Source: Dehalococcoidia bacterium
Lineage (GTDB): Bacteria; Chloroflexota; Dehalococcoidia; Dehalococcoidales; W498
Assembly (NCBI GenBank): GCA_011191875.1
Contig: DUFC01000031.1
Span: 42,879-106,878 of the forward strand
Length of the DNA: 64,000 nucleotides
Direction: 5' to 3'
Shown here: in pieces, positions 49,841 to 54,651 of the stretch
How the letters are laid out: every line of letters begins with the position of its first letter
Position numbering within the stretch: position 1 is the stretch's first letter
Notes under the pieces: generated by a model
Told to the model about the DNA's origin: nothing
The model's database searches: none
What the model saw: only the letters and a program-made list of their open reading frames with translations
Program-made: the position numbers and the translations under genes

Positions 49841-51022
49841 ATGAAGTTCCTTAAGGTGCTGGCTCTCAGTCTTATAAGCTCCCTTCTTGTCCTGTCTCTT
49901 TTTGCTTTTGGTATTGCACTTACACTAAATTATACCCTCCTCAACCCGGATTTCATTGTCTCTGAGGTAGATAAGGTCGATATATCTTCATTAGTCGAGG
50001 AATTCATCAGTGAAGAAATCTCCGAAGAAGAGCTGCCCGAAGAGCTTAGGGTTGTCCTAGTTGACACCGTCACCAAACTCGAACCAGTAGTAAAGGAACG
50101 AGCAAATGCCACCATTTACCCCATCTTTGATTACTTACTGGGGAAAAGCCAAAGCCCAGACTTGGCGCTTACGCTACGTAATACCTTTTTAAATTCGGAA
50201 TTTGTCGTCTCCGTACTGGATGAGCTAGATGTATCTTCGCTAGCAGAAGAATTGCTCACCGAGGAGTTCATTGAGGAAATCCCAGAAGAGATGGAGTATC
50301 TAGTTGAGTATATGGATGACATCGTCGCCGAACTTGAACCATGGGCAAAAGAACAAGTAAGTATCGCCGCTGACCCCGTCTTCGATTACCTAGTAGGGGA
50401 AAGCCAGAGTCTGAACGTGGTAATCTCACTAGAACCAGTAATGGAAAGCCTAGAGGATACTCTGAGGGAAGCCTTCCTAGAATCACCACCGTCAGACCTT
50501 TCCCACTTACCTCAGGCTGAACTCGAGCTGTACTTTGATGTGTATTTCCAGGAATTAACTGAAACAATGCCGTCGACCTTTGAGATTAACGAAAGCTTAT
50601 TGGGCACTGAGGTGCCAGCAGAGATAGCTGAAGCACTGGCCGAGACTGAAGGGGCACTTGAGCAGGCGAGGCAGTATATTGGCTATTTCCAGCTTGGTTA
50701 CAAGATTCTAATTGGCTTCACTCTGCTACTAATACTGGGCATTGTTCTCATAAATCGCCAGGTAAAGGGTGCTACCCGTGGGATAGGCATTCCATTCCTG
50801 ACTTGTGGAGCCCTTAGCTACATTGGTATTTTAATTGCTAAGAATATTATTAGGAAACTGTTAATGCGTCTTGATATACCGGCTCAGTTCCAACCACTGC
50901 TACCACAACTCCTCAGTGACTTCTTAGCTCCACTGCAATGGTTCAGCCTCGGTCTTTTTATTTCCGGGATAGCTCTAATCATAGTCTCTTTTATCTATAA
51001 GCCACGCCAGCCTTCATTTTGA
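49841..51022 (+). CDS. Hypothetical membrane protein with tandem acidic internal repeat
   Basis: 393 aa with an N-terminal TM anchor and two 83-aa acidic repeats (LNPDFIVSEVDKVDISSLVEEF... and LNSEFVVSVLDELDVSSLAEEL...). A third partial acidic segment and about 3 C-terminal TM helices follow. Confidence 0.6.
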   Translation: MKFLKVLALSLISSLLVLSLFAFGIALTLNYTLLNPDFIVSEVDKVDISSLVEEFISEEISEEELPEELRVVLVDTVTKLEPVVKERANATIYPIFDYLLGKSQSPDLALTLRNTFLNSEFVVSVLDELDVSSLAEELLTEEFIEEIPEEMEYLVEYMDDIVAELEPWAKEQVSIAADPVFDYLVGESQSLNVVISLEPVMESLEDTLREAFLESPPSDLSHLPQAELELYFDVYFQELTETMPSTFEINESLLGTEVPAEIAEALAETEGALEQARQYIGYFQLGYKILIGFTLLLILGIVLINRQVKGATRGIGIPFLTCGALSYIGILIAKNIIRKLLMRLDIPAQFQPLLPQLLSDFLAPLQWFSLGLFISGIALIIVSFIYKPRQPSF

Positions 51023-51113
51023 ACCAAAGTCTCTGCTACTGTAATTAGACGGTTCCTTTATATTGCTCCATCTCTATCTCTAGTGGTAAAATCATCAGGG
51101 AGTATTAACTAGT

Positions 51114-51380
51114 GTGAGTAAGGATAAATATAACAATACGATAAATGATGTGCACCTTCGCCAGCTTACTGTAGACGAAGCACTGTTAAAGCTAGATAAA
51201 TATCTAAACGATGCCTTTATGACTGGTTCACTCCAGGTTAGGGTAATTCACGGTAAGGGAACAGGCATCCTGCGCCAGGTAGTCCGTAAGCAGCTCGCTA
51301 AACATCCGCTGGTCAAATCATACCGACCGGGGGCTTATGGAGAAGGAGGTTCCGGAGTTACTATAGCTGAGCTAGTCTAA
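51114..51380 (+). CDS. Stand-alone Smr (small MutS-related) domain protein
   Basis: 88 aa with a GTG start. DVHLRQLTVDEAL..LDKYLNDA......VRVIHGKGTGILR is the Smr pattern. Confidence 0.8.
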   Translation: MSKDKYNNTINDVHLRQLTVDEALLKLDKYLNDAFMTGSLQVRVIHGKGTGILRQVVRKQLAKHPLVKSYRPGAYGEGGSGVTIAELV

Positions 51381-51397
51381 AAGTGGTTGACTCCTCA

Positions 51398-51426
51398 TTG
51401 AAAGAAGAAGGGTTTTTAGCTATAAT
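51398..51426 (+). promoter_or_regulatory. Near-consensus promoter for tRNA-His
   Basis: TTGAAA (51398-51403), a 17-nt spacer, then TATAAT (51421-51426), 15 nt before the tRNA. Confidence 0.55.
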
Positions 51427-51441
51427 ACCCAGGCTACCTAT

Positions 51442-51519
51442 GGTGAGTGTCGCCTAGTGGTCTAAGGCGCCAGGTTGTGGCCCTGGAGAACGAGGGTTCA
51501 AATCCCTCCACTCACCCCA
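51442..51519 (+). tRNA. tRNA-His (anticodon GTG), with encoded G-1 and CCA
   Basis: Manual cloverleaf. The 8-bp acceptor GGTGAGTG/CACTCACC has the extra G-1:C73 pair diagnostic of tRNA-His. The D stem is GCCT/AGGC, the anticodon stem CCAGG/CCTGG with loop TTGTGGC, and the T arm GAGGG-TTCAAAT-CCCTC, followed by CCA. Confidence 0.9.
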
Positions 51520-51526
51520 AACTGAA

Positions 51527-51554
51527 GCGCTTATAGCTTAGCGGACAGAGCATC
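51527..51554 (+). pseudogene. Orphan 5' half (acceptor + D arm) of tRNA-Arg
   Basis: GCGCTTATAGCTTAGCGGACAGAGCATC matches positions 1-28 of the tRNA-Arg at 52505 at 26 of 28 bases. The downstream sequence has no complementary anticodon stem, T arm or acceptor 3' strand. Confidence 0.6.
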
Positions 51555-51611
51555 TTACTTACCAGTATATGGCAGGGTAGGGTACTAGGTAATAGTGAGG
51601 ACAATGTGATT

Positions 51612-52289
51612 TTAGGCGAGAGAGATTAATCCCGTCTTCAGAGCTAACACTACCGCTTCAGTACGGTCGTTGGCACTCAACTTTGTCATAATTGAAGAGA
51701 CATGATTCTTAATGGTTTGTTCACTAATGTTAAGTTCAGACGCAATCTGCTTGTTACTGCGACCTTGAGCTATATGGTTGACGATTTCTATCTCTCGCAC
51801 CGTGAGCTGCGCTTTTGTCGTCTCATCTTCCCTCTTTCCAGATAGTTGTCGAAACTGGCGTAATACTCCATCGGCTATTTCAGGTTGACTGGAAAGAGCT
51901 TCATATATAGGGTACTCACCACGAGCTACACGCCTCACGATATCAGCCAGATAGTCACCGCTGACTTCCTTGTTTAGATAAGCGGCAACTTGGGTTGCAA
52001 GCACCCGGACGAACTGGTCTTCACTGAGATTTGAGGCAAGCGCAATCACGCCAACACTAGGCAAGACCTGTGTTAGTCTACGAATTAAGCTCATGCCACT
52101 GTCGGAAGGAACATCCATATCCACAATCACCACATCAGGTGGCATAACCTCAATAGCTACAGCCCAGCCAGTGACTTCAGCCTGACCAATAACTTCCATA
52201 TCCTCCATACTGGAGAGCCAATGCCTTATGCCCTCCCCCAACAGAGGTTGCTGGCAAAAGGTAAAAACCTTAATCTTCTGCTCACTCAT
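51612..52289 (-). CDS. LuxR/NarL-type response regulator with atypical receiver
   Basis: The ORF track start is 52331, but the internal ATG at 52289 (MSEQKIKVF) is the likelier start. The C-terminal LuxR HTH is LTVREIEIVNHIAQGRSNKQIASELNISEQTIKNHVSSIM. The receiver retains the putative acceptor Asp (VVIVDMDVP), Ser and Lys, but has CQ where the N-terminal acidic DD pair normally sits. Confidence 0.8.
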   Translation of the reverse strand: MSEQKIKVFTFCQQPLLGEGIRHWLSSMEDMEVIGQAEVTGWAVAIEVMPPDVVIVDMDVPSDSGMSLIRRLTQVLPSVGVIALASNLSEDQFVRVLATQVAAYLNKEVSGDYLADIVRRVARGEYPIYEALSSQPEIADGVLRQFRQLSGKREDETTKAQLTVREIEIVNHIAQGRSNKQIASELNISEQTIKNHVSSIMTKLSANDRTEAVVLALKTGLISLA

Positions 52290-52464
52290 ATGACTAAGCT
52301 TAAGAATAGCACAGAAAGAGGCTAATTTCAACGATTTGACTTGTGATAGGCCTTGAGCTATTAAAGCACAGATTGATTCGGAATATACCCGTTCTCATTA
52401 CTTTTACCTCCAGCCAGCCAGCTTTATAAGTCTTGTTAACTGTGATACTTAGTGATGAAGCCCA

Positions 52465-52494
52465 TTGCTCTCTGTCTGGCTTGTCAGGTATAAT
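52465..52494 (+). promoter_or_regulatory. Candidate promoter for tRNA-Arg
   Basis: TTGCTC (52465-52470), an 18-nt spacer, then TATAAT (52489-52494), 10 nt before the tRNA 5' end. Confidence 0.45.
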
Positions 52495-52504
52495 TTAATT
52501 GAGT

Positions 52505-52580
52505 GCGCCTATAGCTCAGCGGACAGAGCATCGGTCTTCGGAACCGAGGGTCGTGGGTTCGAATCCCTCTAGGCGCGCCA
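52505..52580 (+). tRNA. tRNA-Arg (anticodon TCG), CCA encoded
   Basis: Manual cloverleaf. The acceptor is GCGCCTA/TAGGCGC, the D stem GCTC/GAGC, and the anticodon stem TCGGT/ACCGA with loop CTTCGGA. The T arm GTGGG-TTCGAAT-CCCTC has one U-U mismatch. It ends in GCCA. Confidence 0.88.
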
Positions 52581-52758
52581 GTATCAAGATAAAAGCTCCT
52601 AAGCTATCGACAATTATTAAATACCACCCCAGGGAGAAATGGAAACTCACTCCTCGGGGCGGTTGTGCTTTTTGCCAGTTGAACCGAGACTTAAGGCTTC
52701 AAGACGCTAATACTACTTTTATCCAGTCCTGGGAACTGGGCAAGATGATACCTGGTAT

Positions 52759-54651
52759 CTATACAAAGGAGGCAGGCTTGATATAATCTCCATATTTCTC
52801 TCTAGCCTTGATTAATCTCTGCCTTTGCTCTTCAAACACTTTGAATACTATTGGCGGCGTATCAGTAACCCTGGTCTTGTATATCTCCGTTAATCTATCG
52901 AGCTTGGCTAAGTTTTCTGGAACCCTTATTGTGAACTGCATATTATAATCTTTCTTAGAATAGTCTTGACCGAGCGTTTCTTTGAATAGCTTTACCAGGT
53001 CTCCATATTTTGGTATAAAACCAGTGGGTGTTTCTATTGCATCAACTTCCTTATGGGCACGCAGTTCCATCCATTTAAGCCAAACTCGTTTAGCGTATTT
53101 ATCATTCAAGAAATCCCCGTCAGAGCCTCTCAAGAAGTAATTCACAGAGAAGATGAGAGGTGGATTGGGTAAGTCAGTGCCAAAATTCAGGTTACCTGCA
53201 ACATACTTACCTATGGGTATGGAGAGGAAGTCCAGATTTGACATAGGGTTAAAGGTTCTAACCCCTTCTTTTCCCAAGGTGGCAGCGGTAGTTTCTGATT
53301 CAAGAGCGGCACCTTTAATTATGATGCCATGTTGCCAGCTAAAAGACTCCTCTACCGGTACCAAGGTGTCCGAATCGCGACCTCCATAGATTATTCCGCT
53401 GACCATGACACCATCAGGGTCGTTAAGCTTTGGATCCAAATTCTCTAAATGCTTAATGTCAAGGGTAAAACGTGCGTTTTTGTGTGAAGGTGATATCTCC
53501 TTACCCTCAGCATCCTTCTTCCCAGGAGTCCATTCTCCTGAGTGATTGATACCCTTCTTTGGGGCTTCTCCATCCTTACCAATCCAATAGACACCTTTCT
53601 CCTCGGTAACCAGTACATTTGAAAATATAATCTCACCCGGCGTGTGAAGTGTCTTCCATACTATAGCGTCATCTTTAGAGTTAACGCCTTGTATTATGCC
53701 AAACATTCCCCTTTCTACATTGACGGCGTGTACTTCCCCGTCCTTTTTCCTAATATAGGCAATGTCATCTCCGACTATGGTCTCACCTTCTATCATGGCA
53801 GTGGAAGTCTTTCCACACATAGAAGGAAAAGCTCCTAAGAGATAACTCACCCTGCCTTTTGGACCATGCACACCCATAATCAGCATATGCTCCGTGAGCC
53901 AACCTTCCTTTGATGCTCTATTTATGGCGAGACGCATTGCTAATTTCTTAAGCCCGATAGTATTGCCACCATATTGAGTGTTCGTGCTATATATGGTCTC
54001 ATCTTTGAGGTCAATGTATATTCTACGCTTGTCAATATTTTTACTTACTTCTAACCCAAGCCCTGCCGGCTGTAGCTCCCCTTGAGAATGCACAAACTTA
54101 AAGAACTGCTTATAATCGCCTAATCTCTTGAATTCCTCATATCCCGGTCTATACAATAGGTCCTCACTATGCGCCACATAGGCGGAATCAGTAAGCTGGA
54201 TACAAGGGATAGTAAATTCAGAATTAATAGGACCTAAGCAAAAGAATCGTACATATAACTCGTGCCCCCGCATAATGTTTTTAAGAATCTGGTAAATTTC
54301 TTTGAGTCCTTCGTCTCTATCCATTGAATTAATCTCAGGACCTAGAGCCACACCCTTGGGTATAAGAAATTTCGTAGTTTCTTTATCTCTGGCTTGGTCG
54401 TAATAGCCGTCAAAATGAATAGTGTGACCTTTTAGAGCAAGTTCTGCCTCCCCTCTATCTCTTACCGCCGATTGCCTGATATAGTTAATATCTTCTGCGG
54501 AGTCAGTTGAGACAAAAACTCTATCAGGATTACAAAGCTCCACATACTTGGCGATAAACTGATTTAGCTTGGGATTATTTATCCTGTCAAGTTTCTGGTA
54601 GCCCTCTTGCCCTAATCTGGTTTTAAGTATATTCTTAGCTTTTTCATTCAT
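52759..54651 (-). CDS. pckG: Phosphoenolpyruvate carboxykinase (GTP)
   Basis: 630 aa. The kinase-1a motif is FPSMCGKTS, and the overall N- and C-terminal sequence is typical of GTP-dependent PEPCK. Confidence 0.9.
   Translation of the reverse strand: MNEKAKNILKTRLGQEGYQKLDRINNPKLNQFIAKYVELCNPDRVFVSTDSAEDINYIRQSAVRDRGEAELALKGHTIHFDGYYDQARDKETTKFLIPKGVALGPEINSMDRDEGLKEIYQILKNIMRGHELYVRFFCLGPINSEFTIPCIQLTDSAYVAHSEDLLYRPGYEEFKRLGDYKQFFKFVHSQGELQPAGLGLEVSKNIDKRRIYIDLKDETIYSTNTQYGGNTIGLKKLAMRLAINRASKEGWLTEHMLIMGVHGPKGRVSYLLGAFPSMCGKTSTAMIEGETIVGDDIAYIRKKDGEVHAVNVERGMFGIIQGVNSKDDAIVWKTLHTPGEIIFSNVLVTEEKGVYWIGKDGEAPKKGINHSGEWTPGKKDAEGKEISPSHKNARFTLDIKHLENLDPKLNDPDGVMVSGIIYGGRDSDTLVPVEESFSWQHGIIIKGAALESETTAATLGKEGVRTFNPMSNLDFLSIPIGKYVAGNLNFGTDLPNPPLIFSVNYFLRGSDGDFLNDKYAKRVWLKWMELRAHKEVDAIETPTGFIPKYGDLVKLFKETLGQDYSKKDYNMQFTIRVPENLAKLDRLTEIYKTRVTDTPPIVFKVFEEQRQRLIKAREKYGDYIKPASFV

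Follow-up and report, generated by a model that had tools for sequence, protein, structure and literature searches.

The window considered here is a stretch of 64,000 nucleotides (nt) from a Dehalococcoidia bacterium (GenBank assembly GCA_011191875.1, contig DUFC01000031.1, positions 42,879 to 106,878), in which a tRNA-His gene and a tRNA-Arg(TCG) gene lie on the same strand and are separated by one response regulator gene and by a second, partial copy of tRNA-Arg (Table 1). The partial copy starts 7 nt past the CCA of tRNA-His and covers the acceptor 5' strand and the D arm and reaches 2 nt into the anticodon stem, and the DNA after nt 28 (TTACTTACCAG...) continues without anticodon arm, T arm or 3' acceptor strand. 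With a repeat finder, positions 51527-51554 and 52505-52532 were aligned over 28 nt at 93% identity (26/28), with a spacing of 978 bp. When the 28-mer was searched at up to 3 mismatches, just two sites were found in the 64 kb, and none of 100 shuffled sequences gave any match. An initial annotation of this DNA had described a repeated tRNA-Arg 5' half bracketing a module whose single gene is a minus-strand LuxR-type regulator, and both parts of that description hold, the regulator being recognized through its Response_reg and GerE domains.

Both tRNA genes were also recovered by ARAGORN and Rfam, and no tRNA or other RNA model matched 51527 onward in a permissive Rfam scan (E up to 10). A complete, intron-containing or split tRNA at 51527 was rejected because no covariance model matched there, ARAGORN gave two tRNAs only, and the downstream tRNA-Arg is complete alone. 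A classical tRNA island integrated on the 3' side was likewise rejected, as neither the T arm nor the 3' acceptor strand is repeated within 51000-53200 and both are missing from the fragment. Nothing integrase-like was found in the window by tblastn, no transposase was present among the open reading frames (ORFs) and Pfam matches of the window, and no inverted repeats bound the module. An insertion sequence or transposon was discarded on these grounds, the repeat itself being 28 nt of tRNA sequence.

Comparison with relatives indicates what the locus looked like before it was divided. In a metagenome scan for sites at which the D arm of tRNA-Arg begins 10-20 nt past the 3' end of this tRNA-His, at least 119 junctions were found in related Dehalococcoidia (related loci are given L numbers below): 72 are contiguous His-Arg tandems, 44 have a 5' fragment only, and 3 are cut by a contig end. 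Spacers of the 72 tandems are highly varied, so that many lineages are represented, and their intact tRNA-Arg lies 5-13 nt after tRNA-His, the position of the fragment in the window. The Smr-domain gene is found directly 5' of tRNA-His in most of the 119 loci. Moreover, a PEPCK (phosphoenolpyruvate carboxykinase) synteny probe of a genome collection, which gave almost no syntenic loci because the best relatives of the enzyme are archaeal or belong to other phyla, led to a Dehalococcoidales metagenome-assembled genome (MAG; L025) with the order Smr, promoter, tRNA-His, 8 nt, intact tRNA-Arg(TCG) and convergent PEPCK, that is, the flanks of the window without the 978 bp. Convergent PEPCK follows the tandem in L177, L189 and L168 as well.

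In a tree of the Smr gene and promoter flank (386 columns, 200 bootstraps), the six regulator-bearing loci (the window, L106, L142, L097, L222 and L105) form one clade with 200/200 support, nested among tandem lineages. Pairwise identity is 85-87% among these loci and does not exceed 77% to the closest lineages, which carry tandems. The tandem is thus the ancestral, common and outgroup state, and the monophyly of the six loci indicates that the split occurred once, as an old event in the clade ancestor that was then inherited. The initial annotation had read the locus as an insertion or rearrangement scar splitting an ancestral His/Arg tandem and had proposed looking in relatives for that tandem without the 978 bp; the 72 tandems among the 119 junctions, the flanks of L025 and the single nested clade all agree with it. 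A relative that has the regulator between the two tRNA genes but no repeated 5' half was not found. One locus with an L106-type spacer and an intact tandem, L136, was considered as an empty site of the window clade and set aside, its Smr being merely 71% identical to that of the window, which marks a different lineage.

Table 1. Features of the His-Arg locus (positions within the 64,000-nt window)
Feature	Position	Strand	Basis and remarks
Smr-domain gene, 88 amino acids (aa)	51114..51380	+	Pfam Smr, E = 7.7e-25; conserved upstream flank of the His-Arg locus
Promoter-like site of tRNA-His, TTGAAA-17-TATAAT	51398..51426	+	11/12 consensus positions
tRNA-His(GTG), intact, CCA encoded	51443..51519	+	ARAGORN; Rfam tRNA 66.5 bits
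Displaced 5' fragment of tRNA-Arg(TCG), nt 1-28	51527..51554	+	Repeat finder, 28-mer search
Non-coding remnant, fragment to regulator stop codon	51555..51611	.	Alignment with L105, L106
NarL/LuxR-type response regulator, 225 aa	51612..52289	-	Pfam GerE 2.4e-20, Response_reg 4.1e-10; positionally orphan
Proposed own promoter of intact tRNA-Arg	52465..52494	+	-35 TTGCTC 52465-52470, 18-nt spacer, -10 TATAAT 52489-52494; read from sequence
Intact tRNA-Arg(TCG)	52505..52580	+	ARAGORN; Rfam tRNA 68.8 bits, full length
GTP-dependent PEPCK gene, convergent with tRNA-Arg	52759..54651	-	Pfam PEPCK_GTP, PEPCK_N; downstream flank

Orthologous fragments are present in L106, L142, L097, L105 and L222, in differing states of preservation. 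Identity to the intact tRNA-Arg is 28/28 in L106 and 26/28 in the window; the fragment is 25 nt long in L142, and identity falls to ~18-19/28 in L097 and L105, where the last seven bases are replaced and acceptor bases are mutated. The initial annotation had taken the two mismatches in the window as a sign that the fragment is already decaying, and the wider comparison bears this out. Pairwise fragment differences of 2, 8 and 10 of 28 have a mean equal to the ~6.7 expected from the synonymous divergence of flanking genes, and nearby intergenic DNA aligns at 74-83% identity among lineages. The fragment therefore appears to decay roughly neutrally with no sign of constraint; selection on it was rejected on these figures, the stranded copy would have no function, and occasional gene conversion by the intact copy may also have taken place. 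A polymorphism at tRNA position 16 was considered as a marker of native versus imported 5' halves and proved uninformative, C being found there in most lineages. Beside the fragment, the non-coding remnant is 57 nt long in the window against 132-134 nt in L105 and L106, with 44-52 of the 56-57 aligned positions identical; the ~77-nt difference is a lineage-specific deletion in the window. A possible hairpin (GGTGGG…CCCACC) is seen in the same region of L097 and L105.

Separation from tRNA-His would have uncoupled tRNA-Arg from the promoter that the two genes shared. A TTGAAA-17-TATAAT-type motif like that of the window precedes tRNA-His in L025, L097, L105 and L106, and in tandem lineages this promoter presumably drives tRNA-Arg too. 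In the split clade, a perfect TATAAT ends 10 nt 5' of tRNA-Arg and is conserved as GGTATAAT, at the same distance from the tRNA, in L097, L105 and L106; this element may drive tRNA-Arg in the window. Of the TTGCTC-N18-TATAAT promoter proposed in the initial annotation, the TATAAT is thus present and conserved, but the TTGCTC hexamer matches only 3/6 consensus positions and a consensus promoter scan made no call at 52465-52494.

The regulator starts at an ATG, a 239-aa ORF reaching 52331 being a TTG extension, and both of its domains score above the curated Pfam cut-offs (Response_reg 40.2 vs 30.2 bits; GerE 72.3 vs 23.5 bits). The receiver is of an atypical kind, with QQ in place of the N-terminal, metal-binding acidic pair (FTFCQQPLL, window 52245-52289; FTFSQQPLL in L097, L105 and L106), and the phospho-acceptor Asp position is retained. 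No kinase gene adjoins the regulator, the closest histidine-kinase-like match in the window being ~45 kb off, and none was found near its homologues in outgroup contexts. The QQ substitution, together with the lack of an adjacent kinase, suggests an atypical and probably phosphorylation-independent regulator. In the lineage of L097 and L105 (L097:1-2017 (-), L147 and L186), a large PAS-PAS-HisKA sensor kinase lies 3' of tRNA-Arg in place of PEPCK, so that the kinase and the 'orphan' regulator are separated by the tRNA alone.

More than 800 homologues of the regulator were found, most of those listed being 225 aa long, and the identical protein is encoded on 17 metagenomic contigs labelled Dehalococcoidia, all with the two-copy tRNA structure. 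Within the clade, its synonymous divergence (dS) is 0.27-0.30 and its ratio of nonsynonymous to synonymous divergence (dN/dS) is 0.24-0.30, close to the values of the adjacent Smr gene (dS 0.29-0.37, dN/dS 0.25-0.29), which indicates vertical inheritance with the flank under purifying selection; the regulator appears to be a functional resident gene. Outside the clade, the nearest homologues (63-67% identity) have comM on one side and the rplL operon on the other in three species, and more distant ones (60-63%) lie upstream of pilD, the prepilin peptidase gene. No tRNA stands beside the homologue in any of the six outgroup contexts examined, and the regulator is accordingly not native to the His/Arg site, which it reached in the clade ancestor. 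Among tandem lineages, L124 (13-2596, +) has a 54%-identical regulator homologue just 5' of Smr, overlapping the end of a 645-aa ORF that is a kinase-like match to the window; members of the family have consequently settled near the His-Arg locus more than once.

The clearest view of how such a split can arise comes from a sister lineage, in which the same tRNA-Arg gene is found both occupied and empty. L097 equals L105, the empty site, plus ~6.5 kb. Homology to L105 stops on the left right after ...CTTCGGA (...GGTCTTCGGA), the last base of the anticodon loop, and resumes on the right at TGCGCC, and the tRNA 5' half stands at both ends of the island as a perfect direct repeat (39/39 nt). Besides small ORFs and a GmrSD-type gene, the insert contains a tyrosine-integrase remnant, the C-terminal 113 aa, which includes HDLRH and the catalytic Tyr region and whose stop codon lies 13 nt 5' of the rebuilt tRNA-Arg, on the same strand. 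Resolved to the base, these junctions indicate that the L097 (E2-type) element brought its own tRNA 5' half and left the resident half stranded at the other end with the regulator and the TATAAT of the clade. The L097 island is a second, younger 5'-side event in the gene that carries the old split of the clade.

The same integrase remnant (~90% DNA identity) stands immediately 5' of tRNA-Arg(TCG), co-oriented, in L107 and L109. All of the best 120 relatives of the L097 integrase are short (83-195 aa), with varying truncation points, and the longer ones keep the box I arginine motif; they were read as widespread decayed remnants rather than as products of a split-gene design. A 'suicidal' integrase of the SSV/pTN3 type, split by its own attachment (att) site, was rejected because the remnant is the C-terminal catalytic part, ends in a natural stop 5' of the tRNA and is truncated at differing points. 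No promoter was conserved consistently inside the integrase remnants of L097, L107 and L109. A search of viral contigs for the exact 33-nt tRNA-Arg 5' half gave no copy, and no free att-carrying element was identified there.

Further observations concern this group of elements. In L107:10001-11867 (WJOY01000009.1), tRNA-Arg(TCG) has integrases on both sides: 5' of it lies the truncated co-oriented remnant, with an island bearing an MmeI-type restriction-modification gene and capsid fragments, and 3' of it lies a full-length 389-aa integrase on the opposite strand, so that one tRNA serves as target for both polarities. The left end of E2-type elements (L097:9560-9768 (-); L125, L160, L165, L166 and L207) is a conserved GC-rich non-coding stretch of ~150-200 nt, GGATGAGCYAGGCACG…CCATATAGTCTGAGAT…, which recurs in different host lineages and matched nothing in Rfam; it may represent a structured RNA or an attachment-site arm region. 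An ENA contig (P0226) encodes an integrase fragment of 174 aa that shares 59% identity with the E2 remnant.

Beyond this pair of loci, the 44 split junctions point to repeated events at the same gene. Their fragments mostly stop at nt 38, with nt 43 as the end point of a second group, and at least five unrelated left-end sequences follow them. The L097-type left end is also present behind four other spacers, and identical spacers occur in the tandem and split states, for example in L217 and L218. L138 and L208 retain 23 nt of a fragment that is 43 nt long in related loci, which shows that stranded fragments do shorten by secondary deletion. In the nt-43 group (L145, L176, L178, L179, L181, L210 and L211), a conserved GC-rich hairpin with a T-run (…GGGCCATGC…GCATGGCCCCATTTTGTATCTGG) lies in the first ~60 nt after the fragment and looks like an intrinsic terminator; metabolic genes then follow (enolase-like, aldehyde:ferredoxin oxidoreductase-like), with no obvious mobile cargo, and these loci may be either large islands or rearrangements. 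The full reversed polarity is established for one element family only, the E2/L097 type.

Taken together, the locus is best explained, with a probability of about 60%, as the eroded scar of a 5'-side integration by an element that targets the tRNA 5' half, followed by erosion to one retained gene. The ancestor would have carried the tRNA-His-tRNA-Arg(TCG) tandem with a spacer of the 8-nt class and one promoter 5' of His, between Smr and PEPCK. In the clade ancestor, foreign DNA would have recombined with the 5' part of tRNA-Arg, bringing its own tRNA 5' part and upstream DNA with a -10 element, of which ~950 bp would now be left. The element-borne 5' part would have joined the resident 3' part to form a complete tRNA-Arg uncoupled from the His promoter, and the resident 5' part would have been left stranded 7 nt after tRNA-His. 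The most likely agent would be a 'reversed polarity' element that encodes a tyrosine integrase and uses the tRNA 5' half as att site; an integrase would thus have made the window's own event, and the regulator would have arrived as element cargo. Later deletions would have removed the integrase and nearly all cargo and trimmed the fragment to nt 28, the regulator being kept by purifying selection. The window shows the marks expected of a 5'-side scar, namely a repeat that is the 5' portion of the tRNA, a fragment that keeps the original upstream flank, and an empty site in relatives.

Several observations weigh against this explanation. No integrase remnant was found in the window (tblastn) or its clade, an integrase inside the insert being seen in the sister island alone, as the 113-aa remnant. 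The break at nt 28, within the 5' strand of the anticodon stem, is sharp even in L106 (28/28), whereas nt 38 or 43 is the end point in the demonstrable integrase events and in most of the other 38 split loci; integration would therefore require a secondary deletion that ended inside the fragment before the clade diverged, a trimming that is plausible given L138 and L208. In the window the upstream region of the regulator abuts the tRNA, the place taken in the E2-type element by the 3' end of the integrase, so that the original element, if any, was of another type or has been rearranged. The regulator family, moreover, resembles a conserved chromosomal gene more than typical island cargo. Metabolic genes follow some of the split loci, which means that islands are not proven for every split, and the contigs of other split loci end before the far side.

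The sharp end at nt 28 is accounted for in a single step if no integrase was involved. Linear DNA of another Dehalococcoidia genome, carrying the regulator, the promoter and tRNA-Arg, could have entered by homology-facilitated illegitimate recombination, its tRNA-Arg end pairing by homology with the resident gene and the other end being joined illegitimately at nt 28 of that gene. Such an origin would also explain why no integrase or terminal repeats are present and why the sole cargo gene is of chromosomal type, and it suits a regulator family that lies in different chromosomal contexts in different lineages and has therefore moved more than once. It is nevertheless rated as rather unlikely. 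A 76-nt tRNA is a short homologous anchor, no donor arrangement of regulator and tRNA-Arg was seen in the six outgroup contexts, and a site-specific origin is more parsimonious given that integrase elements demonstrably hit the 5' side of this tRNA in sister lineages.

A duplication history would leave an outcome identical to the observed state: a His-Arg-Arg array would have formed, and regulator DNA would have been inserted into, or have replaced, the 3' two-thirds of the first copy, the 28 nt being the remains of an old paralogue. Weak similarity just 5' of both copies (AACTGA-A vs AATTGAGT) could be a trace of it, but this is not kept in the clade, L105 having TTTCACTGCGT 5' of tRNA-Arg; as a second tRNA-Arg copy occurs in 0/72 tandems and the regulator insertion and new promoter would remain unexplained, this course of events is quite improbable. 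Least probable of all, to the point of being hardly credible, is a fragment kept by selection, either as a tRNA-half-like small RNA co-transcribed with tRNA-His or as a processing or termination signal of the His transcript. The 7-nt distance puts it in the path of the His promoter, and 26-28/28 positions match the tRNA in three lineages; against this stand the differences at their neutral expectation, the replaced 3' third and mutated acceptor bases of L097 and L105, the 74-83% conservation of nearby intergenic DNA itself, and the lack of a predicted terminator there.

Recombination with the distal 5' part of tRNA genes is documented, although rare (PMC6563490; PMC8371274). Elements of 'reversed target orientation' have been described in bacteria (Zhao & Williams 2002, as cited in PMC6563490), and pTN3-like elements in archaea (PMC8371274). 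Nearly all site-specific elements replace the 3' end of the tRNA, and the host promoter is then kept; the 5'-side mode is described in reviews as rare and as seldom met in bacteria. As in reversed-orientation elements, the repeat in the window is the 5' portion of the tRNA, the gene would be rebuilt from an element 5' half and a resident 3' half, and the resident 5' half is stranded with the original upstream DNA at the other end; joined to element DNA upstream, a rebuilt tRNA must be expressed from that DNA. Each of these traits is seen in the L097 island, where the rebuilt tRNA is abutted by a tyrosine-integrase remnant. The window module, in contrast, is without an integrase, its repeat stops at nt 28 instead of in the anticodon loop, and ~950 bp are left. 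Unlike in pTN3-type elements, the att site of the E2 type lies 3' of the integrase stop codon, so that integration leaves the integrase gene unsplit. The initial annotation had called the locus atypical in that the 5' half is duplicated, the module is tiny, and no integrase, transposase or terminal inverted repeat is present. All three features were observed correctly, but they are not unprecedented: 5'-side duplication belongs to a known rare class (PMC6563490, PMC8371274) and recurs at this tRNA in sister lineages, and the small size and missing integrase fit the erosion of an old insert.

Classical tRNA-gene islands and prophages integrate on the 3' side (Williams 2002, as cited in PMC6563490, PMC8371274). 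They share with the window a site-specific tRNA target, a preserved intact tRNA, a partial copy as direct repeat and decay over time, and they are met at this tRNA-Arg as well, an opposite-strand integrase lying just 3' of it in L115, L116, L122, L130, L146, L182 and L107. They differ in duplicating the 3' part and leaving the tRNA its own promoter, whereas in the window it is the 5' part that is present twice and tRNA-Arg has been separated from its original promoter, that of tRNA-His. The dusA-specific integrases, as outlined in PMC4482086, insert at the 5' end of a protein-coding gene; insertion at the 5' end of a conserved gene is a shared trait, and the protein-coding target and the integrase family are different. 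In Dehalococcoides, genomic islands specific for ssrA (the gene of tmRNA) are known from the account in PMC3146451. They resemble the present case in bacterial class and in site-specificity for a small stable-RNA gene, and differ in using ssrA, not the 5' half of tRNA-Arg. These ssrA islands reportedly duplicate the ssrA 3' end, insert repeatedly and leave repeat arrays. Altogether, the locus most likely exemplifies, in an old and eroded state, a mode of integration that is known but uncommon, and its tRNA is a recurrent 5'-side target in this lineage.

A broader proposal, which is possible though on the doubtful side, is that the tRNA-Arg(TCG) of the His-Arg operon in these sediment Dehalococcoidia is a dedicated hotspot of several element families that all replace the 5' half of the gene. 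Each integration would then rewire transcription away from the His promoter and leave a 5' half still co-transcribed with tRNA-His, and the regulator of the window would be a host gene captured and fixed by this route. If so, 5'-side integration, deemed exceptional in bacteria, would be the dominant mode at one locus throughout a lineage. The locus-wide splitting pattern is a more interesting lead than the window feature itself, as it comprises one bacterial tRNA gene with repeated 5'-side splitting (44/119 junctions), one base-resolved pair of occupied and empty sites, and one clade-fixed old event with an apparently still functional regulator. Such loci offer a natural series for the study of promoter supply to an essential tRNA, of the erosion of islands to one gene and of the uncoupling of a co-transcribed tRNA pair. 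For annotation, a tRNA 5' half found duplicated next to an intact tRNA operon is a mark of old integration even where no integrase is left.

The wider neighbourhood of the locus consists of housekeeping genes (QueA, Smr, PEPCK, CsoR-like, formate-dehydrogenase-like and molybdenum-cofactor genes). The nearest relatives of the PEPCK gene in a collection of species-representative genomes are found in archaeal MAGs, at no more than 76% identity (Methylarchaceae, Hadarchaeota and Methanophagales), and matches in Dehalococcoidia reach merely ~70-71%, a distribution that suggests inter-domain transfer of this gene.

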